From: a virus
Taxonomy: Duplodnaviria; Heunggongvirae; Uroviricota; Caudoviricetes
Length of the DNA: 8,953 nt
IMG/VR virus record: IMGVR_UViG_2778261447_000007
Span: 1 to 8,953 of that record
Reading direction: 5' to 3' (one strand)
The number at the start of each line of letters is the position of its first letter. The stretch's first letter is position 1. The notes under the pieces are model-generated. The model had not been told where the DNA came from. It did not search any database and saw only the letters and a program-made list of their open reading frames with translations. Positions 1-8,953 of the stretch are shown one piece after another. The translations under genes were made by a program, and so were the position numbers.

Positions 1-165
1 ATGACTCATGATGAACCCTGTTCCATGGCTCCAGATGACAAACATGATCTCATATCAGGGACTTGTTCGCACCTTCCCTAGCTCTACCCTGCGCCATGAA
101 AATGTCAATTCACATCTGAACTAATGCTCTTTAATCTAGTAACGTCTAAAATACCTAACATTTCC

Positions 166-579
166 TTAATAAAATGCCAGTACACGCTGCATAGCTTCGC
201 TCTTCCGGCACTCGCGACAGATTATATTCAGGCGCCTGTCGTAGCGGCGTATTTCTCCGTCTGGTAATGACCAGATAAGGTCAGGATCAACCACAACCGG
301 TTTTTTCACCTTTTCCCTTGATAGTTTTTTGCGGGCGTTTTGCCAGTCTTTACGCGCCTGCTCAGACGGGAATAATCCGTAGCCTGAATTGTATACATCA
401 CCACTGGCAACCAGCTCTCTGGCAAGAACGCTCAGCAGATATCTTGTCGCACCTGTTTTCGCTTCCAGTTGTCGTAACGTCTCGCGCCCGCTCTGTCGCA
501 CGAGTTCGACAACCTGCCCTTTAATTTTTCCCGCTCTTCTTGTGTAAATACTTTTGCCATAAGCGCCTCCGGCAATCAC
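166..579 (-). CDS. Hypothetical prophage protein (137 aa), function unknown
   Basis: Complete ORF on minus strand. No ATG available; GTG start at 579-577 overlaps the TGA stop of the upstream gene (GTGA coupling). Basic C-terminal half. No family recognised by eye. Confidence 0.45.
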   Translation of the reverse strand: MIAGGAYGKSIYTRRAGKIKGQVVELVRQSGRETLRQLEAKTGATRYLLSVLARELVASGDVYNSGYGLFPSEQARKDWQNARKKLSREKVKKPVVVDPDLIWSLPDGEIRRYDRRLNIICRECRKSEAMQRVLAFY

Positions 580-1346
580 TTTTCCGATACAACACGGCGG
601 GAAGAATCAGTAATCTGTCGAACAATATCCCGGTGCTTGTTCAGCTCCCGCAGCGCGGCGCAGACTCGCTCCCACTTCTGAACATGATTTTTCGCCCGAC
701 GCAATTCGCGGTTTGCCATATGCAGCGATGGTAAAACCAGGTCATCCGCTCGCGTTTCAGTAAACGATGGCAGCGACTGCACAATGTCCGCCACAGTATC
801 TGTTGTAATTTCTTCCTGTGTTGCAGCTTCCTGTACTGGTAACGCAACACCTGCTGGCTGAGGAAAGGCCTTACCAGCCGTTTTCGTTACCGGTGCAGCT
901 TTCGGCTCTGCCGGTAAATTATCGCCCGGCATGCAGTAACTAAATTTACCGTTCCGATTAACGCGTGCCAGCCGCCCCGTTGCGGTTACTACCGCCAGTG
1001 TGGAAGCAACCTTGCGAGTGCTGACACCGAACTTACCCGCCAGTTCCTCACACGTTTTAGCCCCCTCCTGACTGATAAACTCAATCATCATGTCTGCGGT
1101 AACTTTTTGTTCAACCTCCCCGGTCAGCATATCCTGTGCTTCAGATTTTACTGGTCGCTCTTCGGTTACCCGGGATTCACCTTCGCCAGCCAGAAACCAG
1201 ATGTGACCAGTTTTATCAACGAGGCCATTTCTTTTGAGTTCCCACAGCTCGTTCAGAACTTCTTCACGACTGATATCAAGTCGCGTAGCCAATTCTACCG
1301 ACGTGGCTTTTCCCATTGCTTTCAGTGCGTCTAAAACGGTTTCCAT
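576..1346 (-). CDS. Hypothetical prophage protein (256 aa) with two winged-helix-like segments; possibly DUF1627-like (YdaW-like)
   Basis: ATG at 1346; 23 bp downstream of the DnaC-like gene on the same strand. N-terminal 'SVELATRLDISREEVLNELWELKRNGLV' and internal 'CEELAGKFGVSTRKVASTLAVVTATGRLARV' look like wHTH units. Family assignment is from memory and uncertain. Confidence 0.5.
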   Translation of the reverse strand: METVLDALKAMGKATSVELATRLDISREEVLNELWELKRNGLVDKTGHIWFLAGEGESRVTEERPVKSEAQDMLTGEVEQKVTADMMIEFISQEGAKTCEELAGKFGVSTRKVASTLAVVTATGRLARVNRNGKFSYCMPGDNLPAEPKAAPVTKTAGKAFPQPAGVALPVQEAATQEEITTDTVADIVQSLPSFTETRADDLVLPSLHMANRELRRAKNHVQKWERVCAALRELNKHRDIVRQITDSSRRVVSEK

Positions 1347-1369
1347 TAAATTTTTTCTCCCCGATAAAA

Positions 1370-2116
1370 TTACTTTTCAATTCCTGGCTGACCGACATTC
1401 GCACGCCAGCTCTCCCAGTTAAAATTCACCCAGCGCCCACCGTTCATGGTCATGCGGTCCATCACGCGCCCGCCAAGCAGGGTGCTCATTGCGGTATGAT
1501 TCAGGTTCGTCAGCATCCCGACACTGCGCATCGCGGCTGTTCTGCGATCGACGATCTGGTTCAGTGTGACCTGTTCGTTGCGCGTATCACGCTGCATGCC
1601 AATCTCATCCAGAACCAGCAGGTCAACGTCACATAAACCCTGCAAAAATTTTTCGCCTGAGTTTTTGTTATCGTAGATGCCGTGTAGCGCCAGCATCACA
1701 TCAGCCACCGTGACCACAATCACGCTGCGACCTTTCGCCAGAAGATGATTACCGATGGCGGCTGCCAGGTGATTTTTTCCGGTACCCGGCTTACCGCTGA
1801 ACACGAAATTTGTGCATCCGGTTCTCAGTACGTCCGCGATGGATTTTGCCTGGCTCAGCGCATATCGCTGGCCGTCGTTCTGCACCCAGTAATTCGCAAA
1901 CGAACATTTGCGGTGCAACGGCTGGATACCGGAGCGATTCAGAATTTTTTCCACCCGTAACTGACGATTCTGACGGTTGATCTCCTCGCAACGTTTCTGG
2001 CCTTCCGCAAGTTGCCACTCACGCCACTCTTCTGCCGTCCGGTACGGCGCGGTTACATGCTGTGGTGCCAGCTTGCGGATACGTTCAAGAACACCTCCTG
2101 CCGCTATATTTTTCAT
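1370..2116 (-). CDS. DnaC-like replicative helicase loader (AAA+ ATPase, IstB/DnaC family)
   Basis: 248 aa. Walker A 'SGKPGTGKNHLAAAIG', Walker B 'DLLVLDEIG', and 'LNQIVDRR...GMLTNLN...RVMDRM' closely resemble E. coli DnaC as recalled. Starts 6 nt after the initiator gene stop. Confidence 0.9.
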   Translation of the reverse strand: MKNIAAGGVLERIRKLAPQHVTAPYRTAEEWREWQLAEGQKRCEEINRQNRQLRVEKILNRSGIQPLHRKCSFANYWVQNDGQRYALSQAKSIADVLRTGCTNFVFSGKPGTGKNHLAAAIGNHLLAKGRSVIVVTVADVMLALHGIYDNKNSGEKFLQGLCDVDLLVLDEIGMQRDTRNEQVTLNQIVDRRTAAMRSVGMLTNLNHTAMSTLLGGRVMDRMTMNGGRWVNFNWESWRANVGQPGIEK

Positions 2117-2122
2117 AATCCT

Positions 2123-3193
2123 TCACCCCCTGAAACCTGGTGGAATTTCGGTATCCGGTTCGGAAATATGATTCACACAACGCTGGTTGTTCGTCCCGCC
2201 AGTCGGGAGCAACCAGGGGTTTTCAAAATTCCGGTCAGGTCCAAAAAACGTTGTCGCCCGCTGAACAAATTCCGTTCCCGCTTTCCCGGTCGCCGCCAGG
2301 TACCTCGCGTAACGCCTCACACCATCCAGCATGACCTGCGGTGGCACCCCCTCGCGTAATCTGGCCTTCCAGGCACTGAAAGCGGATTTCTTCGGGTTTG
2401 CCCCGGCACGCAACGGGTATTCCCGCCAGACCTGTTCGAACACATCCGGATAATCCACTCGTCCCACAGGCTGCCCGGTGTTTTCCGGGACTACCCGATC
2501 GGCTTCCCGCTGAATCGCGGAATCGGCTTCAGGCTGCTGCAGTTGGTGTGATTGCTCCGACCCTGCGGTCATCGCCTGCTGCACAGCGCCCGAATCGGCT
2601 TTCAGCGCATACGCTGAATCGGCTTCCGGTGTCGTGCCTGCGGGCTGATCAGGATTGACGGTCTGAACATCCCCAGCCTGGTTCGTGGCGTTTTTCACGC
2701 CATGGACCATAGTGTTTTGATCTTCTTGATCTGTATCTTTATCTGTATCTTTATCTGTCGTGACTCGTCGTGACATGTGCGTGACATTTCGTGACGCGCC
2801 GTGACAATCGCCATTTTGTTCCCGCTTTCTTTCCCTCTCTCGCTGCGCCCTCTTGCGCTCTGCAGGAGATTTTGCGGTTTGCGAAATATTGCCGTTGTCC
2901 TCTTTCAGCACCTGGCGTTTTTCCCATCCAGTGATTAAATCACCATCAAGTACCCGCCCCTGCATCGTCTGCAAAATTGAATCAATCATCTCTTCTGTCA
3001 CATCGAGCGCACTTGCCAAATCCTCGGTCGTGACATCAATGTGACCTCGCGTGACATTTCGTGACGCGCTCACCAGGAGGTGGATATACACAGCCATCAC
3101 TGTTGCAATTGGCTGACCTGACACCCGGGCAATGGTTCGCCACTTGGGGTCATTTGGCATGTCATGCCATAATCTGAGCCAGGCATTAGCCAT
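2123..3193 (-). CDS. Phage replication initiator / replisome organiser with DnaT-like C-terminal domain
   Basis: 356 aa, ATG at 3193 with GAGG Shine-Dalgarno. C-terminus '...VNHISEPDTEIPPGFRG' resembles the C-terminus of E. coli primosomal protein DnaT as recalled. Central low-complexity linker is encoded by the iteron repeats. Sits directly upstream of the DnaC-like gene. Confidence 0.75.
   Translation of the reverse strand: MANAWLRLWHDMPNDPKWRTIARVSGQPIATVMAVYIHLLVSASRNVTRGHIDVTTEDLASALDVTEEMIDSILQTMQGRVLDGDLITGWEKRQVLKEDNGNISQTAKSPAERKRAQRERERKREQNGDCHGASRNVTHMSRRVTTDKDTDKDTDQEDQNTMVHGVKNATNQAGDVQTVNPDQPAGTTPEADSAYALKADSGAVQQAMTAGSEQSHQLQQPEADSAIQREADRVVPENTGQPVGRVDYPDVFEQVWREYPLRAGANPKKSAFSAWKARLREGVPPQVMLDGVRRYARYLAATGKAGTEFVQRATTFFGPDRNFENPWLLPTGGTNNQRCVNHISEPDTEIPPGFRG
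2729..2758. repeat. Tandem 12-bp repeat (ATCTGTATCTTT x2.5) in an AT-rich stretch with two GATC sites; candidate DNA-unwinding element of the origin
   Basis: ATCTGTATCTTT at 2729-2740 and 2741-2752, partial ATCTGT at 2753-2758; GATC at 2719-2722 and 2728-2731. Encodes the 'DKDTDKDTD' repeat in the initiator. Confidence 0.6.
2759..2805. repeat. Iteron cluster 1: five CGTGAC repeats with 10-11 bp periodicity (candidate ori iterons inside the initiator gene)
   Basis: CGTGAC at 2759, 2769, 2780, 2790 and 2800, one helical turn apart. Shares the 21-mer GCGTGACATTTCGTGACGCGC (2779-2799) with cluster 2. Confidence 0.7.
3029..3069. repeat. Iteron cluster 2: four (C/T)GTGAC repeats with 10-11 bp periodicity
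   Basis: GTGAC hexamers starting 3029, 3040, 3050 and 3060. The 21-mer GCGTGACATTTCGTGACGCGC at 3049-3069 is identical to 2779-2799. Confidence 0.65.
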
Positions 3194-3264
3194 ACTAACC
3201 TCTTCAGATACCGAATCTTTTTAATCACGTATTACCGAAAGAGATCCGGTATGAATATTGCCGA

Positions 3265-3690
3265 TCAATGCACAGCCACAGCATTTCCGGCCGGGCCACC
3301 ACGGTTGATCTGGTTGAAGCCAGCTATTGCCACCGCGACAAAATCATCAGCGTCTCTCACCAGTCGTTCCCGCATCTCCACCAGCTCCCGAAAATAAGCT
3401 GAACTGTGGCTGCGCATTCTGGCCACCAGCAAAGGTGGCATTGCCTTTTCGATCGCTGGTAACAACGCCTGAATTTTTTCAACTGCATCAGGGGTGTCTT
3501 TCTCTACCCAGCGGAAAATTTTCTGGGTATTACGCGCCAGGGCTTCAGGGTGGCTGTCGTCGTACAGTTCCGGGAACGTCATACCCAGTTCGAAATACGC
3601 TTTGGTAATTTTCGCAGCCGGTACTTTTTCGCCGTCCGGATGCGCCCAGGCATTCATCGCCATGCGGATGTGCTCATGTTTGATTTTCAT
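3265..3690 (-). CDS. ydaT: YdaT-like protein (141 aa; cII-analogue position in Rac-like prophages)
   Basis: ATG at 3690 overlaps the stop of the upstream Cro-like gene (ATGA). Position and size fit the second gene of the Rac ydaS-ydaT operon; N-terminus 'MKIKHEHI...' recalled as YdaT-like. Not verified by alignment. Confidence 0.65.
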   Translation of the reverse strand: MKIKHEHIRMAMNAWAHPDGEKVPAAKITKAYFELGMTFPELYDDSHPEALARNTQKIFRWVEKDTPDAVEKIQALLPAIEKAMPPLLVARMRSHSSAYFRELVEMRERLVRDADDFVAVAIAGFNQINRGGPAGNAVAVH

Positions 3691-3974
3691 GAATCAACCC
3701 CATCAACTTTTTTGGTGTTAAGCTCATATTTATGACTTGAAGGGGGCGTAATTCCGGTGTATTCCGGCCATATAAGATCCCAGTCATTCGGCCTCAACTC
3801 TCTTCTTGTAACATGCCCTGCAGTTTCTGCTTCTATCATTAACGCACGAACAGGAGACACTGGTGAACTGCCAGATGCCATTTGAGACAAGAAGGACGGA
3901 GACACACCAAGGTTGGCAGCAAATTTTTTTGCTTCTCCAGTTTTTAATGATTTGATGAATTCCTTTAGAGTCAT
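3687..3974 (-). CDS. ydaS: Cro-like HTH regulator (YdaS-like), first gene of leftward early operon
   Basis: ATG at 3974 (M12 of the 3687..4007 ORF, whose upstream start is TTG). 'LKEFIKSLKTGEAKKFAANLGVSPSFLSQMASG' is an XRE/Cro-type HTH. Divergent from the repressor gene. Confidence 0.7.
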   Translation of the reverse strand: MTLKEFIKSLKTGEAKKFAANLGVSPSFLSQMASGSSPVSPVRALMIEAETAGHVTRRELRPNDWDLIWPEYTGITPPSSHKYELNTKKVDGVDS

Positions 3975-4010
3975 GATTTCGATCTCAACATACTTTAGTG
4001 CAAGCAAAAG

Positions 4011-4038
4011 TTTATACGTAACTAAATAAACCAGTCAA
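4011..4038 (-). promoter_or_regulatory. pR-like sigma70 promoter for the leftward ydaS-ydaT-replication operon (TTGACT-N16-TATAAA on minus strand)
   Basis: Minus strand reads TTGACT (plus 4033-4038), 16-nt spacer, TATAAA (plus 4011-4016), about 35 nt upstream of the ydaS ATG. Near-identical to the promoter at 5463-5490. Confidence 0.6.
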
Positions 4039-4077
4039 GTATTTGCTTATTTCGCAATTACTAAAGATAATGCATGT

Positions 4078-4449
4078 ATGGAAACAAGAGAGATTCGGCG
4101 TTTACGCCTCAAAGAGTGGTTCAAAGACAGAACTTTGCCACCCAAAGAGAAAAGTTACTTATCTCAGTTAATGAGCGGTAAGGCTACGTTTGGCGAAAAA
4201 GCAGCTAGACGTATTGAACAAACATATGGGATGCCAGGGGGTTATCTTGATATTGAGCCAGAAGACATAACAGAGTCTCCATCATCAAGAGCTATAGCAT
4301 TAACCCCTAACCAGCTGGAATTGCTACAAATATTTAGTGCATTTCCTGATAATGAACAGCAAGAGATCATAAAAGAACTAAGAAACAAAAAAGAAGCAAT
4401 GGAAGATTTTGTCGCACGTTGGTTGGCGCAGCAAGGTCGCCGCGCCTGA
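4078..4449 (+). CDS. Prophage repressor candidate (RacR-like/cI-analogue HTH regulator, 123 aa)
   Basis: Divergent from the Cro-like gene across about 100 bp. HTH-like 'KSYLSQLMSGKATFGEKAARRIEQTYGMPGGYLD'. C-terminal module is homologous to the downstream PaaR-like protein. No Shine-Dalgarno; a GATAAT -10 sits 8 nt upstream of the ATG. Confidence 0.65.
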   Translation: METREIRRLRLKEWFKDRTLPPKEKSYLSQLMSGKATFGEKAARRIEQTYGMPGGYLDIEPEDITESPSSRAIALTPNQLELLQIFSAFPDNEQQEIIKELRNKKEAMEDFVARWLAQQGRRA

Positions 4450-4483
4450 TGGGAAGCATACTCTTAAAAACAAGATATATCAG

Positions 4484-4882
4484 ATGGGTGTACTCGAAAT
4501 TAGTGCTCTTAGAATTAGGAAGCTTTTGTTGGTAACAGGCTGGAGCCAGGCAGAACTTGCGCGCAGAATTGGCATTACTCAACAATCCGTTCAAAGATGG
4601 GTTTGTGGTATCTCAAGCCCTACAGCAGCTAATCTAGATAAACTATCTGAAGCAACAGGATATCCTCAGTATTGGTTCTTCTTACCGTTAAATGAAGAAA
4701 AAAATGACAGAATACAAGATATAATAAAAATAACTCCTAGGCAAAAGGAGCTACTTCAAACATTTGAGGCATTTCCAGAGGAAGATCAAGAGCAAATGCT
4801 TCAGGAGATGAAAGACAAAAAAGAGTTAATGGATCGCACAATTGAAAGATGGCTCGCTGCCCGGAAAGGGCATCGGGCATAA
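4484..4882 (+). CDS. paaR: PaaR-like HTH transcriptional regulator of a three-component ParE toxin-antitoxin system (paralogue of the upstream repressor)
   Basis: ATG at 4484 preferred over the TTG at 4409, which would overlap the upstream gene by 41 nt. XRE-type HTH 'WSQAELARRIGITQQSVQRW'. C-terminus 'ITPRQKELLQTFEAFPEEDQEQ...ERWLA' aligns with 'LTPNQLELLQIFSAFPDNEQQE...ARWLA' of the 4078..4449 product. Directly upstream of the antitoxin and toxin genes. Confidence 0.6.
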   Translation: MGVLEISALRIRKLLLVTGWSQAELARRIGITQQSVQRWVCGISSPTAANLDKLSEATGYPQYWFFLPLNEEKNDRIQDIIKITPRQKELLQTFEAFPEEDQEQMLQEMKDKKELMDRTIERWLAARKGHRA

Positions 4883-4911
4883 TGACCACCATACACAGAC
4901 GGAGGTGTGCC

Positions 4912-5103
4912 ATGAATACGGCCCTTTCACCAATGGTTTCTGAGTTTGAAACTATTGAACAAGAAAACAGTTACAACGAATGGCTGCGAGCCAAAGTAGC
5001 TGCAAGCCTTGCAGATCCGCGCCCAGCAATTCCCCATGACGAAGTTGAGCGCAGAATGGCAGAACGCTTTGCTAAAATACGCAAGGAACGGAGTGAACAG
5101 TAA
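4912..5103 (+). CDS. paaA: PaaA-like antitoxin (63 aa) partnered with ParE
   Basis: ATG at 4912 with GGAGG Shine-Dalgarno 6 nt upstream; TAA stop abuts the parE ATG. 'MNTALSPMVSEFETIEQENSYNEWLRAKVA...' matches the PaaA2 antitoxin of E. coli O157 paaR2-paaA2-parE2 as recalled. Confidence 0.7.
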   Translation: MNTALSPMVSEFETIEQENSYNEWLRAKVAASLADPRPAIPHDEVERRMAERFAKIRKERSEQ

Positions 5104-5388
5104 ATGTTACCTGTGTTATGGCTTGAAAGCGCAGATACCGACCTGGATGATATAACTAGTTACATTGCTCGTTTCGACATAGATGCGGCAGAACGCTTAT
5201 GGCAGCGATTAAGGGGGTGTGTGCTGCCATTATCCGAACATCCGTATTTATACCCCCCAAGCGACAGAGTGCCAGGCTTACGTGAGATTGTGGCTCACCC
5301 CAATTATATAATTCTGTACCGCGTGACAACCTCAAGTATTGAAATAGTAAACGTAGTCCATACCCGCCGACAGTTCCCTGTAACATAA
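5104..5388 (+). CDS. parE: ParE/RelE-superfamily toxin (ParE-like, 94 aa)
   Basis: Immediately follows the antitoxin stop. Size and sequence character ('LWLESADTDLDDITSYIARFD...IVAHPNYIILYRV') typical of ParE toxins. Confidence 0.8.
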   Translation: MLPVLWLESADTDLDDITSYIARFDIDAAERLWQRLRGCVLPLSEHPYLYPPSDRVPGLREIVAHPNYIILYRVTTSSIEIVNVVHTRRQFPVT

Positions 5389-5413
5389 CCCTCTGCCCAT
5401 CAACACAGCCTTA

Positions 5414-5441
5414 AACACTCTCAAAGAGAGTGTTATTTTTT
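5414..5441 (+). terminator. Rho-independent terminator ending the repressor/toxin-antitoxin transcription unit
   Basis: Perfect 9-bp stem AACACTCTC (5414-5422) / GAGAGTGTT (5426-5434), 3-nt loop, followed by A then T6 (5436-5441); 26 nt after the parE stop. Confidence 0.85.
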
Positions 5442-5462
5442 ACTGTTTAGTTAAGTTGTAGA

Positions 5463-5490
5463 TTGACTGTTAAGTTTATTTTTGTATAAA
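5463..5490 (+). promoter_or_regulatory. pL-like sigma70 early promoter (TTGACT-N16-TATAAA) directed toward the 72-aa ORF and RecE-like gene
   Basis: TTGACT 5463-5468, 16-nt spacer, TATAAA 5485-5490. Flanked by GTTAAGTT direct repeats (5450-5457, 5469-5476) and a TTTAGT motif shared with the pR-like region. Confidence 0.55.
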
Positions 5491-5678
5491 CTAATTTCAC
5501 CAACCCACCCCGCCCCACAGAACGCAGGGCAATACTTCGAGTTACCAGGCAGTGGTCAGGGGTTAAGTAGCCAGCCCGAGGCGTATGAACATGACGGCAG
5601 GGTTTAACTTTAACTATGCAGCAGGTTTTTGTTCCGCTACCCCGGCGTTAAGGGGAAACAGCACTGAGAGAAATCAGT

Positions 5679-5897
5679 ATGCAGAAGCGAGAACCCGTCA
5701 TCATCGCGCCAGACTATACCGATGATGAACTTTATGAGTGGATGCGCCAGAAAATTAAGGCAGCGCAGGACCTGAAATGGGCCAATGAAGCCAGGGCTAA
5801 GCAGGCTGAAAATCTGTCCGCTCTGGAGCAGGATATCACCAATCTGGAAAAAGCAGCGGCATTAAGCATTGCCAGAATGATTACATACCCGCGTTAA
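5679..5897 (+). CDS. Hypothetical small early protein (72 aa), first ORF downstream of the pL-like promoter
   Basis: ATG at 5679 with GAGAG upstream. Predicted helical, charged; 'ENLSALEQDITNLEKAAALSIARMI' looks coiled-coil-like. No Arg-rich N-like motif. Function unknown. Confidence 0.5.
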   Translation: MQKREPVIIAPDYTDDELYEWMRQKIKAAQDLKWANEARAKQAENLSALEQDITNLEKAAALSIARMITYPR

Positions 5898-6248
5898 TAG
5901 CTAACCAACGAAGCTAAGGTTGGTAATTAAGGAGTTCTCCACGGGTAAGGTGGAGTACGTGCGCCGGACACGGGTGAGCATCCGGCACTGACAGTTTACT
6001 GAAAGGATATTTCCCTGAAAAGTCAGACCATAACGCGAAAGCGCACGGCGAGGTAGCTGGTTCATAGATAGTCTGTCGTTAAATTTTCGTCGACCGTGCG
6101 CTTCCGGTTGTGGCACTCCGCGAAATGGCGCGGCGTAATCATGGCGGGGTACCCTTCCCCTTGAGGACACCGGGTTGTCAGGCTGACCATGCGCCTGAGT
6201 GACAACCCCGCTGCAACGCCCTCTGTTATCAATTTTCTGGTGACGTTT

Positions 6249-6291
6249 GGCGGTATCAGTTTTACTCCGTGACTGCTCTGCCGCCCTTTTT
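6249..6291 (+). terminator. Possible intrinsic terminator (GGCGG...CCGCC stem then T5), weak
   Basis: GGCGG 6249-6253 pairs with CCGCC 6281-6285, followed by C and T5 (6287-6291). Loop is long (27 nt, with an internal CAGT/ACTG stem), so non-canonical. Confidence 0.3.
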
Positions 6292-6295
6292 AAAG

Positions 6296-6443
6296 TGAAT
6301 TTTGTGATGTGGTGAATGCGGCTCAGCGCACGCGGAACAGTTAAAACCAAAAACAGTGTTATGGGTGGATTCTCTGTATCCGGCGTTAATTGTTAACTGG
6401 TTAACGTCACCTGGAGGCACCAGGCACCGCATCACAAAATTCA
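6296..6443. repeat. 17-bp imperfect inverted repeat pair (16/17) flanking a ~114-bp segment that contains tandem GTTAAC palindromes
   Basis: Left arm TGAATTTTGTGATGTGG (6296-6312); right arm CCGCATCACAAAATTCA (6427-6443) is its reverse complement with one mismatch. Interior has GTTAACTGGTTAAC (about 6393-6406) and CCTGG-aggca-CCAGG. Confidence 0.6.
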
Positions 6444-6460
6444 TTGTTTAGGACGCGATA

Positions 6461-6643
6461 ATGGAAACGTTATTACCAAACGTCAATACGTCTGAAGGTT
6501 GTTTTGAAATTGGTGTCAGAATCAGTAACCCTGTATTTACTGAAGATGCCATTAATAAGAGAAAACACGAACGGGAGCTATTAAATCAAATATGCATTGT
6601 TTCAATGCTGGCCCGTTTACGCCTGATGCAAAAAGGACGCTGA
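6461..6643 (+). CDS. Hypothetical small protein (60 aa)
   Basis: ATG at 6461, 17 nt after the right inverted-repeat arm, with AGGA upstream. Stop is 2 nt before the next ORF start. No family recognised. Confidence 0.4.
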   Translation: METLLPNVNTSEGCFEIGVRISNPVFTEDAINKRKHERELLNQICIVSMLARLRLMQKGR

Positions 6644-6645
6644 CA

Positions 6646-6837
6646 ATGAATACAGCATTTGCACTCGTTCTGACAGTTTTTCTTAATACAGGCGAACCAG
6701 TCGATCTTGTTATTGGTATACATGACTCAATGAAAGAATGCATGGCTGCCGCAGCGGAACAGAAAATTCCCGGCAACTGTTATCCGGTTGATAAAGTTAT
6801 TCGCATGGACAATAACGAAATCCCGGCTGGTCTTTAA
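6646..6837 (+). CDS. Small protein (63 aa) with hydrophobic N-terminus and conserved Cys; possibly DUF1482/YebW-like
   Basis: ATG at 6646 (M19 of the 6592..6837 ORF) with AAGGA Shine-Dalgarno. 'MNTAFALVLTVFLNTGEPVDLVIG...C...CYP' resembles YebW-type small prophage proteins as recalled. Uncertain. Confidence 0.45.
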   Translation: MNTAFALVLTVFLNTGEPVDLVIGIHDSMKECMAAAAEQKIPGNCYPVDKVIRMDNNEIPAGL

Positions 6838-6929
6838 AACAGTTCCGTAATAAACATCCGATTTCATTCTTATATGCCAGCAATGGCAGGGATTTGTTCA
6901 CCCTTAAATCTGTAATGAGGTAAAACAAA

Positions 6930-8953
6930 ATGAGTAAAGTCTTTATTTGCGCCGCCATTCCGGACGAACAGGCAATAAAGGAAGAAGGTGCAGTTGCTGT
7001 AGCCACTGCCATTGAAGCCGGTGATGAACGTCGCGCCCGCGCAAAATTTCACTGGCAATTCCTGGAACATTATCCGGCTGCTCAGGACTGCGCTTATAAA
7101 TTTCTTGTTTGCGAGGATAAACCCGGTATACCCCGCCCTGCCCTCGATTCCTGGGATGCTGAATATATGCAGGAAAACCGCTGGGATGAGGAGTCTGCTT
7201 CCTTTGTCCCTGTTGAGACTGAATCAGATCCGATGAACGCCACTTTTGACAAGCTGGCCCCTGAAGTACAGAACGCTGTCATGGTTAGGTTCGACGCATG
7301 TGAAAACATCACCGTTGATATGGTGATTAGCGCGCAGGAATTGTTGCAGGAAGACATGGCAACATTCGACGGACATATCGTTGAAGCGTTGATGAAAATG
7401 CCAGAAGTTAACGCCATGTATCCGGAGCTTAAGCTGCATGCCATCGGGTGGGTTAAACATAAATGTAAGCCGGGTGCAAAATGGCCTGAGATCCAGACAG
7501 AATTACGCACATGGAAAAAACGTCGCGAAGCCGAACGCAAAGAAACCGGGAAATACACGTCTGTTGTAGATCTCGCCCGCGCCAGAGTCAACCTACAGCA
7601 CACTGAAAACTCAGCAGAAAAAATCCACCCTGTCACTGCAGTCATTCGTCGCGAATATAAGCAGACGTGGAAAACACTGGATGATGAACTGGCCTACGCT
7701 CTGTGGCCTGGTGACATTGATGCCGGAAACATTGACGGCAGCATCCATCGCTGGGCAAAAAATGAAGTTATCGACAACGACCGCGAAGACTGGAAGCGTA
7801 TCTCGGCATCAATGCGCAAACAGCCTGATGCCCTTCGCTACGACCGCCAGACTATTTTTGGCCTTGTCCGTGAACGTCCGATCGACATTCACAAAGACCC
7901 TGTGGCACTGAACAAATACATTACTGAATACCTGACTACAAAGGGCGTGTTTGAAGATGAAGGAACAAATCAGAGCGCAACTGATACTCTCTCGTCGCCA
8001 GTACCAGAAACTGATGCAGTGGAAACGGCAATTCCGGACAACGAAAAAACCGAATGCAAAGTGGAAGTCGAACCATCTGTAGAGCGTGAGGGGCCGTTCT
8101 ACTTCCTCTTCACCGACAAGGATGGCGAAAAATACGGTCGCGCAAACAAACTTTCTGGTCTGGATAAGGCGCTGGCTGCCGGGGCTACTGAAATCACGAA
8201 AGAAGAATATTTCGCCCGCAAAAACGGTACATACTCAGGTTCACAACAAAATACTGGTGCATCTGACACGACCGCACAACCAGAGCCGGTAAAAGTTACA
8301 GCTGACGAAGTAAGCAAAATTATGCAGGCAGCCAATATCAGCCAGCCTGACGCCGATAAGTTGCTTGCGGCCTCTCGCGGTGAATTTGTTGCAGGGATTA
8401 GCGATCCGAATGATCCGAAATGGGTGAAGGGGATTGAAACCCGCGATTCTGTGAACCAGAACCAGCAAGAAACGGAACAGAACGACCAGAAAGAGGAACA
8501 AAACAGCCCAAATACGCAACAAAACGAGCCAGAAACGAAACAACCTGAGCCAGTAGCGCAACAGGAACCAGAAAAAGTCTGCACCGCCTGCGGTCAGACC
8601 AGCGGCGGCAACTGCCCTGATTGTGGCTCAGTAATGGGTGACGCAACATACCAGGAAACATTCAATGGAGAAAATCAGGCTGAATCTCAGGAAAAAAATC
8701 CGGAGGAAACGGAAGGCACTGAGCATCCGCACAAGGAGAACACTGGCGGCGCTCAGGGCCACGCCAGCGATAATAAAACTGGCGAAACAGAAAATTCCTT
8801 AATTAAGATGAACGGTCATCGTGAAATCACATCCACCAGCAGAGTATGGAATCACCTGTCAGTCGACCTTGAAACCATGGGAACCAACACCAATGCACCC
8901 ATAGTAGTTATTGGTGCGGTTTTCTTCGACCCGGAAACAGGGGAAATCGGGCC
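6930..8953 (+). CDS. recE: RecE-like (exodeoxyribonuclease VIII family) large early protein, 5' part only (674+ aa, continues past window end)
   Basis: ATG at 6930 with in-frame TAA at 6921 and GAGG Shine-Dalgarno; frame open to the end of the window. Central 'KLLAASRGEFVAGISDPNDPKWVKGIETRDSVNQNQ' and CxxC-x8-CxxC motif (8580-8624) match the non-catalytic middle of E. coli RecE as recalled. Last residues 'VDLETMG...IVVIGAV' (from 8862) resemble DnaQ-like exonuclease motif I. Confidence 0.55.
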   Translation, partial: MSKVFICAAIPDEQAIKEEGAVAVATAIEAGDERRARAKFHWQFLEHYPAAQDCAYKFLVCEDKPGIPRPALDSWDAEYMQENRWDEESASFVPVETESDPMNATFDKLAPEVQNAVMVRFDACENITVDMVISAQELLQEDMATFDGHIVEALMKMPEVNAMYPELKLHAIGWVKHKCKPGAKWPEIQTELRTWKKRREAERKETGKYTSVVDLARARVNLQHTENSAEKIHPVTAVIRREYKQTWKTLDDELAYALWPGDIDAGNIDGSIHRWAKNEVIDNDREDWKRISASMRKQPDALRYDRQTIFGLVRERPIDIHKDPVALNKYITEYLTTKGVFEDEGTNQSATDTLSSPVPETDAVETAIPDNEKTECKVEVEPSVEREGPFYFLFTDKDGEKYGRANKLSGLDKALAAGATEITKEEYFARKNGTYSGSQQNTGASDTTAQPEPVKVTADEVSKIMQAANISQPDADKLLAASRGEFVAGISDPNDPKWVKGIETRDSVNQNQQETEQNDQKEEQNSPNTQQNEPETKQPEPVAQQEPEKVCTACGQTSGGNCPDCGSVMGDATYQETFNGENQAESQEKNPEETEGTEHPHKENTGGAQGHASDNKTGETENSLIKMNGHREITSTSRVWNHLSVDLETMGTNTNAPIVVIGAVFFDPETGEIG

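Follow-up and report, generated by a model that had tools for sequence, protein, structure and literature searches.

We analyzed a stretch of 8,953 nucleotides (nt) of viral DNA (Caudoviricetes; IMG/VR record IMGVR_UViG_2778261447_000007, positions 1 to 8,953), which we call the window, and in particular the open reading frame (ORF) at positions 6930-8953 of its plus strand. This ORF starts with an ATG at 6930, the annotated start of the coding sequence (CDS) in all related records, and remains open for 674 codons, free of stops up to the end of the window. Its full-length counterpart in uropathogenic Escherichia coli (UPEC) 26-1 is a protein of 826 amino acids (aa) (WP_000048602.1, RefSeq "exonuclease") and is 97.4% identical to the window ORF at the nucleotide level. 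What we say of the part beyond residue 674 (position 8953) is taken from homologues, chiefly this protein. Judged from sequence comparison, the gene encodes a fusion of the N-terminal module of RecE (exonuclease VIII of E. coli K-12) with a predicted DEDDh 3'-5' exonuclease domain, and its features are as follows.

6917..6920, plus strand: Shine-Dalgarno sequence GAGG, 9 nt 5' of the ATG, read from the sequence

6930..8953, plus strand: predicted RecE-N-module/DEDDh exonuclease fusion gene, the 5' 82% (674 codons of about 820), truncated by the window end

6930..7649, plus strand: N-terminal domain, residues 1-240, with an alpha/beta sub-domain (1-100) and a helical sub-domain (105-206); a probable divergent homologue of the RecE N-terminal domain, PF06630 type

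7650..7964, plus strand: helical domain "mid1," residues 241-345, common to RecE at about 271-360 in BLASTP and NCBIfam alignments

7965..8339, plus strand: acidic/polar variable linker, residues 346-470, the least conserved segment between alleles

8340..8804, plus strand: conserved "mid2" module, residues 471-625, common to RecE 459-591, with an intragenic recombination breakpoint at its 5' edge

8349..8444, plus strand: motif A, DADKLLAASRGEFVxGISDPNDPKWVKGIxTRD, residues 474-505, kept with DEDD, PD-(D/E)XK, and Rad52-like C-termini

8580..8624, plus strand: zinc ribbon C551-x2-C554-x7-C562-x2-C565

8850..8951, plus strand: first 34 residues (641-674) of the predicted DEDDh 3'-5' exonuclease domain (PF16473; Pfam E 3.8e-10)

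8865-8873, plus strand: Exo motif I, D646-x-E648, aligned to D7/E9 of T4 DexA

The nuclease domain begins inside the window, where the fragment matches PF16473 (Rv2179c-like 3'-5' exonuclease) with 40.2 bits against a cut-off of 27. In the full-length homologue, this family covers residues 641-814 (E 1.8e-66, 223.6 bits, profile positions 1-175 of 177) and is the only Pfam domain matched; the PD-(D/E)XK domain that K-12 RecE has (PF12684/DUF3799) was not found there by Pfam. The catalytic pentad D646, E648, D749, H799, and D804 aligns with D7, E9, D119, H186, and D191 of DexA, with D749 (motif II) and H799 and D804 (motif III, H-x4-D) lying past the window and seen in the 97.4%-identical homologue. 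In an alignment of 17 sequences (L001, T4 DexA, and 15 family representatives with no more than 50% identity between any two), Exo motif I is conserved in 15 and the catalytic residues are kept in most, while two representatives look degenerate. The sole solved relative that we could detect by sequence is PDB 8kel/8ken, a 227-aa "Exodeoxyribonuclease" (E 5e-8) whose aligned sequence is the T4 dexA translation, residue for residue. The original prediction, made from the letters of the window, had read the last residues as an Exo I motif rather than part of a PD-(D/E)XK nuclease and had proposed a domain swap should the downstream domain prove DnaQ-like; both points are borne out by the PF16473 match with D646/E648 and by full-length homologues that have a DEDDh domain, motifs II and III included, and lack PD-(D/E)XK. 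Its description of the nuclease as DnaQ-like is right in that a complete DEDDh domain follows in the homologue, but it needs correcting as to family: PF00929 (DnaQ/RNase T) scores 19 bits on the full-length homologue, under its cut-off of 24, and these profile matches assign the domain to the Rv2179c/T4 DexA family, not to DnaQ/RNase T proper.

Several phage records label the gene "exodeoxyribonuclease VIII," and the NCBIfam RecE equivalog NF007259 gives a partial match, as if this were a canonical RecE, that is, a 5'-3' PD-(D/E)XK nuclease working with RecT. This match reaches 255.9 bits against a cut-off of 1269 (K-12 RecE scores 1830 bits) and is restricted to residues 246-625 of the 826-aa homologue. 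In the related loci, the gene is not followed by recT (see below). Because a DEDD domain starts inside the window, PF12684 is absent from the homologues, and NF007259 stays below its cut-off, we consider canonical RecE refuted and give it practically no weight. Among the records carrying this label is phage vB_EcoM-606R7 (L005:3670-6113), whose annotation divides the gene into two "exodeoxyribonuclease VIII" CDSs. The translation of the first ends in a run of X residues, which suggests unresolved bases in the record, and the two probably make up a single gene whose N-terminus is of RecE type and whose C-terminus is DEDDh.

Similarity to RecE is strongest in the middle of the protein. BLASTP aligned residues 262-625 with K-12 RecE 278-591 (E 2e-56), with near-identity at about residues 475-610, and the peptides from which a RecE-like center had been recognized (KLLAASRGEF, PNDPKWVKGI, and CxACGQTxGxNCPDCG) are all present. 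At the DNA level, just nt 1425-1857 of the ORF align with K-12 recE, at 74% identity (residues 475-619 versus RecE 459-585), and residues 241-345 match RecE more weakly than residues 475-619. The zinc ribbon is of RecE type as proposed (CxxC-x7-CxxC), with four cysteines that do not vary among the five proteins aligned. By phmmer, mid1 is present in proteins with RecE-type N-termini and in proteins with every C-terminal type. The linker that follows it shows 79.5% nucleotide identity to allele L004, with a ratio of nonsynonymous to synonymous substitution rates (dN/dS) of 0.34.

The first roughly 430 residues had been taken as distinct from K-12 RecE, and this description stands for residues 1-240 in pairwise and Pfam comparisons, which gave no BLAST match to RecE and no match to PF06630, a family that K-12 RecE itself matches at residues 1-178. 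It does not stand for residues 241-345, which are RecE-like, nor for residues 1-205 once families are compared. From the 273 cluster representatives obtained in a HMMER library search with the 674 residues, we built separate alignments of window-type and RecE-type N-termini, and hhalign matched the two families over about 200 columns (residues 1-205) with a probability of 99.4% (E 7e-22). After the six proteins common to both alignments were dropped, the probability was 95.6% (E 1.2e-8), and that of a negative control with an unrelated domain was 0.1%. These profile comparisons identify residues 1-205 as a remote homologue of the RecE N-terminal domain, below the Pfam membership threshold, and the first approximately 625 residues as RecE-like, with a first domain that is a strongly diverged allele. 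With the N-terminus homologous to that of RecE, the nuclease domain would therefore be the sole non-homologous replacement.

We also examined an AlphaFold2 (AF2) model of residues 1-345, which has a mean predicted local distance difference test score (pLDDT) of 87.4 and consists of an alpha/beta sub-domain, a helical sub-domain, and the helical mid1 domain, the last with a pLDDT of >90. A Foldseek search of this model against the PDB returned nothing below an E value of 0.1, and no fold was assigned. The precomputed labels PF27430.1 and PF27432.1 cover the N-terminal region in homologues, so curated Pfam families for this region evidently exist.

The comparison with a prophage of E. coli GF60 shows how alleles of this gene differ. 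This prophage is 99.2% identical to the window over the aligned 74%, which consists chiefly of the left approximately 6 kb of the window and the 3' end of the ORF. The GF60 gene (L007:13682-16135) has a RecE-type N-terminus, and identity to the window restarts exactly at residue 474. This alignment places an intragenic recombination breakpoint near residue 474, where the conserved module begins, and because the allele switch point falls at this residue, the middle module acts as a recombination joint.

To describe the wider family, we mapped six segments onto the long representatives and found that both N-terminal types pair with several C-termini: DEDDh in 14 representatives, PD-(D/E)XK in 10, and a tail of 265 residues in 14. 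Motif A accompanies all three effector types, and the zinc ribbon is restricted to E. coli-like relatives. The 265-residue tail carries the motif KKSLTDAxKKALSxLGF and scores 17.7 bits with Pfam Rad52_Rad22, below the cut-off of 20.3; a profile search of it against PDB sequences found nothing. A Foldseek search paired the AF2 model of this tail with human RAD52 (E 1.5e-6, probability 1.00), and one homologue, from a Pseudomonas phage, carries the annotation RAD52-like annealing protein. On the strength of the model, the tail is predicted to be a Rad52-fold annealase domain. Such fusions include P0251, P0255, P0257, P0269, P0283, P0302, P0303, P0319, P0331, P0349, P0368, and P0376, as well as gp07 of Pectobacterium phage ZF40 (L009:3648-5813), which is annotated "exonuclease" and followed by a Gam-like gene and then xis-int. 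The "exonuclease" label that RefSeq and PHROG (families 2489 and 7838) give to the Rad52-like fusions looks like a propagated misannotation. A fourth tail of about 210-320 residues (PHROG 26058, no Pfam match) is found in P0245, P0350, P0356, P0369, and P0382.

Several representatives depart from this general layout. The short isoforms P0135 and P0123 (527-532 aa) join the N-terminal domain and mid1 almost directly to the DEDDh domain and are without the acidic linker, motif A, and the zinc ribbon; in P0135, moreover, Gly takes the place of the Exo I glutamate. In P0325, P0353, P0367, and P0242, two N-terminal domains stand in tandem, and in P0242 a RecE-type domain is followed by a window-type domain.

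The whole ORF is under purifying selection, with a dN/dS of 0.2-0.3 against three alleles and of about 0.1-0.3 segment by segment. This bears on the possibility that the gene is a decaying, functionless recE remnant in a cryptic prophage, a reading to which many draft-genome copies listed as partial and the frameshifted integrase next to the gene in UPEC 26-1 and GF60 would lend some weight, as would the report on the Sakai prophages that counted their "Exo VIII-type proteins" as a recombination system and judged most of these systems disrupted (PMC2669165). Against decay, the frame is open over all 674 codons, dN/dS is low in every segment, and the catalytic residues are conserved across representatives that have diverged to 50% identity or less. 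In addition, intact copies are found in the complete genomes of phages Evi and Tritos, and 97% of the ORF portion within the window is matched in phages mEp460_ev081, HannyBb, and PhiR42_1. We therefore think it highly improbable that the gene is a remnant. Two minus-strand ORFs inside the gene (7094-7645 and 8099-8584) had no family matches and were taken as chance ORFs.

Apart from this gene, the window consists of the region that serves immunity and replication in a Rac/Qin-like lambdoid prophage. Its minus strand carries genes for DUF977, DUF1627, a DnaC/IstB-like ATPase, a replisome organizer, YdaT, and YdaS/Cro-like proteins, and its plus strand carries two repressor-like ORFs, a PaaA2/ParE toxin-antitoxin pair, the DicF small RNA (sRNA), dicB, and a DUF1482/ydfD-like ORF. 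The features located here are listed below.

4409-4882, plus strand: helix-turn-helix (HTH) regulator, first gene of a toxin-antitoxin module like paaR2-paaA2-parE2

4849-5103, plus strand: PaaA2 antitoxin of the same module

5104-5388, plus strand: ParE toxin of the same module

6235-6286, plus strand: dicF sRNA (Rfam 76.7 bits)

6461-6643, plus strand: dicB (Pfam), in a dicBF-type operon directly 5' of the fusion gene

6592-6837, plus strand: DUF1482/ydfD-like ORF (Pfam), overlapping dicB

A 123-aa ORF at 4078-4449 (plus strand) precedes the toxin-antitoxin module. Over its last approximately 50 residues, it is similar to the C-terminal end of the HTH regulator, and the two may therefore be tandem paralogues.

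When gene order was compared with K-12 Rac and with phages Tritos and Evi, the gene was found between kil/dicB-type genes and xis-int, and it therefore occupies the early-left slot that recE-recT holds in K-12 Rac. A recT-like annealase gene downstream had been named as something to look for; the window ends too early to include one, and none follows the gene in five related loci (UPEC 26-1, GF60, and phages Evi, Tritos, and 606R7), where a DUF4224 or excisionase gene and then an integrase gene were found instead, with a hypothetical ORF at the DUF4224 position in L005. In UPEC 26-1, for example, the gene is followed by a DUF4224 gene, the integrase, and tRNA-Ser. We also found no annotated annealase anywhere in the complete 46-kb genome of Tritos.

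The gene is widespread. Its 2,024 bases in the window were matched in 4485 of 5426 complete E. coli genomes, with at least 80% coverage in 3487 of them and a best identity of 97.4%, and the true RecE PD-(D/E)XK C-terminus was found in 1736 of the same 5426. A megablast count of the DEDD alleles themselves was dropped as unreliable because these alleles diverge to about 70% nucleotide identity, and the N-terminal plus middle region was counted in its place. On this count of the N-terminus and middle region, the DEDDh form appears to be commoner than true RecE in complete E. coli genomes, which would make K-12 RecE the minority form (3487 window-type versus 1736 RecE-type genomes).

Taking the domain assignments and the gene position together, we favor, at somewhat better than even odds, the reading that this is a phage early-operon exonuclease that acts on DNA 3' ends and is delivered by a RecE-type module. 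The early-left promoter would transcribe the gene on induction or infection, and the N-module, which RecE does not need for its nuclease activity and which enhances linear-linear recombination, would bring the C-terminal domain to its site of action, be that DNA ends or a host or phage partner. There, the DEDDh domain would remove nucleotides from DNA 3' ends by two-metal chemistry, as in T4 DexA, and phage or host DNA ends would be processed for recombination or replication with host annealing and strand-exchange functions. We propose the carrier role because the N-module is common to enzymes of opposite polarity and to an annealase, and because linear-linear recombination is enhanced by full-length RecE (PMC11611040); the RecE N-terminal region is described in the same paper as "of unknown function." A broader proposal, which we put forward only tentatively and think rather less likely to be true than false, is that the N-terminal approximately 350-625 residues of RecE are a portable delivery module swapped among at least three DNA-end effectors (nucleases of the PD-(D/E)XK 5'-3' and DEDDh 3'-5' types and a Rad52-like annealase), in which case the DEDDh form might be an end-processing pathway that uses host functions independently of RecT or might have a dual role in recombination and exclusion.

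Several points weigh against an end-processing role. A 3'-5' exonuclease leaves 5' overhangs, which play no part in recombination by single-strand annealing, and the neighborhood of the gene encodes no partner annealase. The label "recombination exonuclease" is one that we infer. The N-module has no solved structural relative, so "targeting" is only a guess at its role, and the domain past residue 674 lies outside the window and is deduced from homologues. The published E. coli DexA homologue acts in defense, not recombination, and our literature searches gave no biochemical or genetic study of the protein itself. Lastly, the Pfam family is named after an exoribonuclease, and the substrate could be RNA.

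This last point leads to a distinct reading, in which the protein is an RNA- or nucleotide-directed exonuclease like Rv2179c of Mycobacterium tuberculosis and trims RNA or degrades short oligonucleotide signals during phage development. The best Pfam family carries the name "Rv2179c-like 3'-5' exoribonuclease," and some RefSeq records use the name 3'-5' exoribonuclease. The sole solved relative detectable by sequence is a DNA exonuclease, however, and both the fusion partners of the N-module and the position of the gene point to DNA metabolism. We consider an RNA or nucleotide substrate improbable.

The "exodeoxyribonuclease VIII/RecE" label on many records is wrong in nuclease fold, in partner, and, by homology to T4 DexA, in expected polarity. 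The apparently commoner "RecE-like" gene of E. coli prophages is therefore not a RecET system, which affects predictions of prophage recombination capacity, such as those for the Sakai prophages cited above. An N-module that serves nucleases of opposite polarity as well as an annealase also makes the question of the RecE N-terminus experimentally approachable. As a discovery, the gene itself is ordinary: a protein 97% identical is in RefSeq, the gene is present in most E. coli genomes, and it is already catalogued as "exonuclease" or "3'-5' exonuclease" in RefSeq, by Pfam domains, and by its own family PHROG 2082 ("exonuclease"), which it matches end to end. The biology is moderately interesting at most. 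What is added here is the RecE-homologous N-terminus, the exact nuclease family, the intragenic breakpoint, and the fusion of the RecE N-module to Rad52-like annealases.

Among related systems, K-12 Rac RecE (866 aa) shares the early-left position between kil/dicB-type genes and xis-int and has homologous mid1, motif A, zinc ribbon, and, remotely, N-terminal domain. It differs in that its PD-(D/E)XK 5'-3' nuclease (PF12684) is replaced here by a predicted DEDDh 3'-5' nuclease (PF16473), in having a recT partner, which the related loci do not, and in showing no pairwise similarity to residues 1-240. T4 DexA (exonuclease A) shares the DEDDh fold family, with about 30% identity over the domain, the five catalytic residues, and the TIEWW segment. 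DexA is, in contrast, a stand-alone 227-aa protein from a lytic phage with hydroxymethylcytosine (hmC) DNA, and the domain described here is without several DexA loops and belongs to temperate phages, in which it is the C-terminal part of a protein about 820 residues long.

EcD, which is encoded in E. coli genomes and proposed as an HREX defense system (PMC12153337), is likewise a DexA-family DEDDh exonuclease, and it brings in the main rival to the end-processing reading: a prophage nuclease that, like EcD, degrades the 5-hydroxymethylcytosine (5hmC) DNA of superinfecting T-even phages and spares host DNA. EcD was reported to degrade 5hmC DNA and, when plasmid-borne, to protect E. coli from T4, and bacterial DexA homologues were found to be commonest in Escherichia (PMC12153337). 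The shared family of the C-terminal domain and the presence of this gene (its 2,024 bases in the window) at 80% coverage or more in 3487 E. coli genomes also speak for this rival. EcD is, however, a different, stand-alone protein, as the ends encoded by its cloning primers are MIDTET... (N-terminal) and ...TIPETY followed by a stop (C-terminal), and the family described here ends in IPNQADF; from the same termini, we reject the idea that EcD is a fragment of this gene. Loss of the tetramer residue D90 of DexA, said to define the defense form, is not seen: EcD is reported to have Ala at this position, and the equivalent here is Asp (D721, in a column with D or E in all but one of the 17 aligned sequences). 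The equivalents of the 5hmC-recognition residues W152 and D169 of DexA are ambiguous. Here, the W152 column is occupied by S or Y, with a conserved Trp (W766) three residues earlier in a loop whose length differs; D785 is one position off the D169 column, and most relatives have Gly at the equivalent residue. No PADLOC defense model matches. The locus of the gene is not of moron type: the gene fills the red/recET slot of an early-left operon that is repressed, in phages that are inducible and viable. The other fusion partners of the N-module are recombination enzymes. On balance, we regard a defense role as unlikely and retain the DNA end-processing exonuclease as the preferred reading.

Rv2179c of M. 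tuberculosis, the founder of PF16473, belongs to the same Pfam family as the nuclease domain described here. It is a small stand-alone exoribonuclease and is not known to have a phage context or a RecE module. The fusions of the N-module to a Rad52-like domain (ZF40 gp07; PHROG 2489) are like the present gene in their N-terminal module, in mid1, and in their place before xis-int, and they are unlike it at the C-terminus, which is a predicted Rad52-fold annealase in those proteins and a predicted nuclease in this one.

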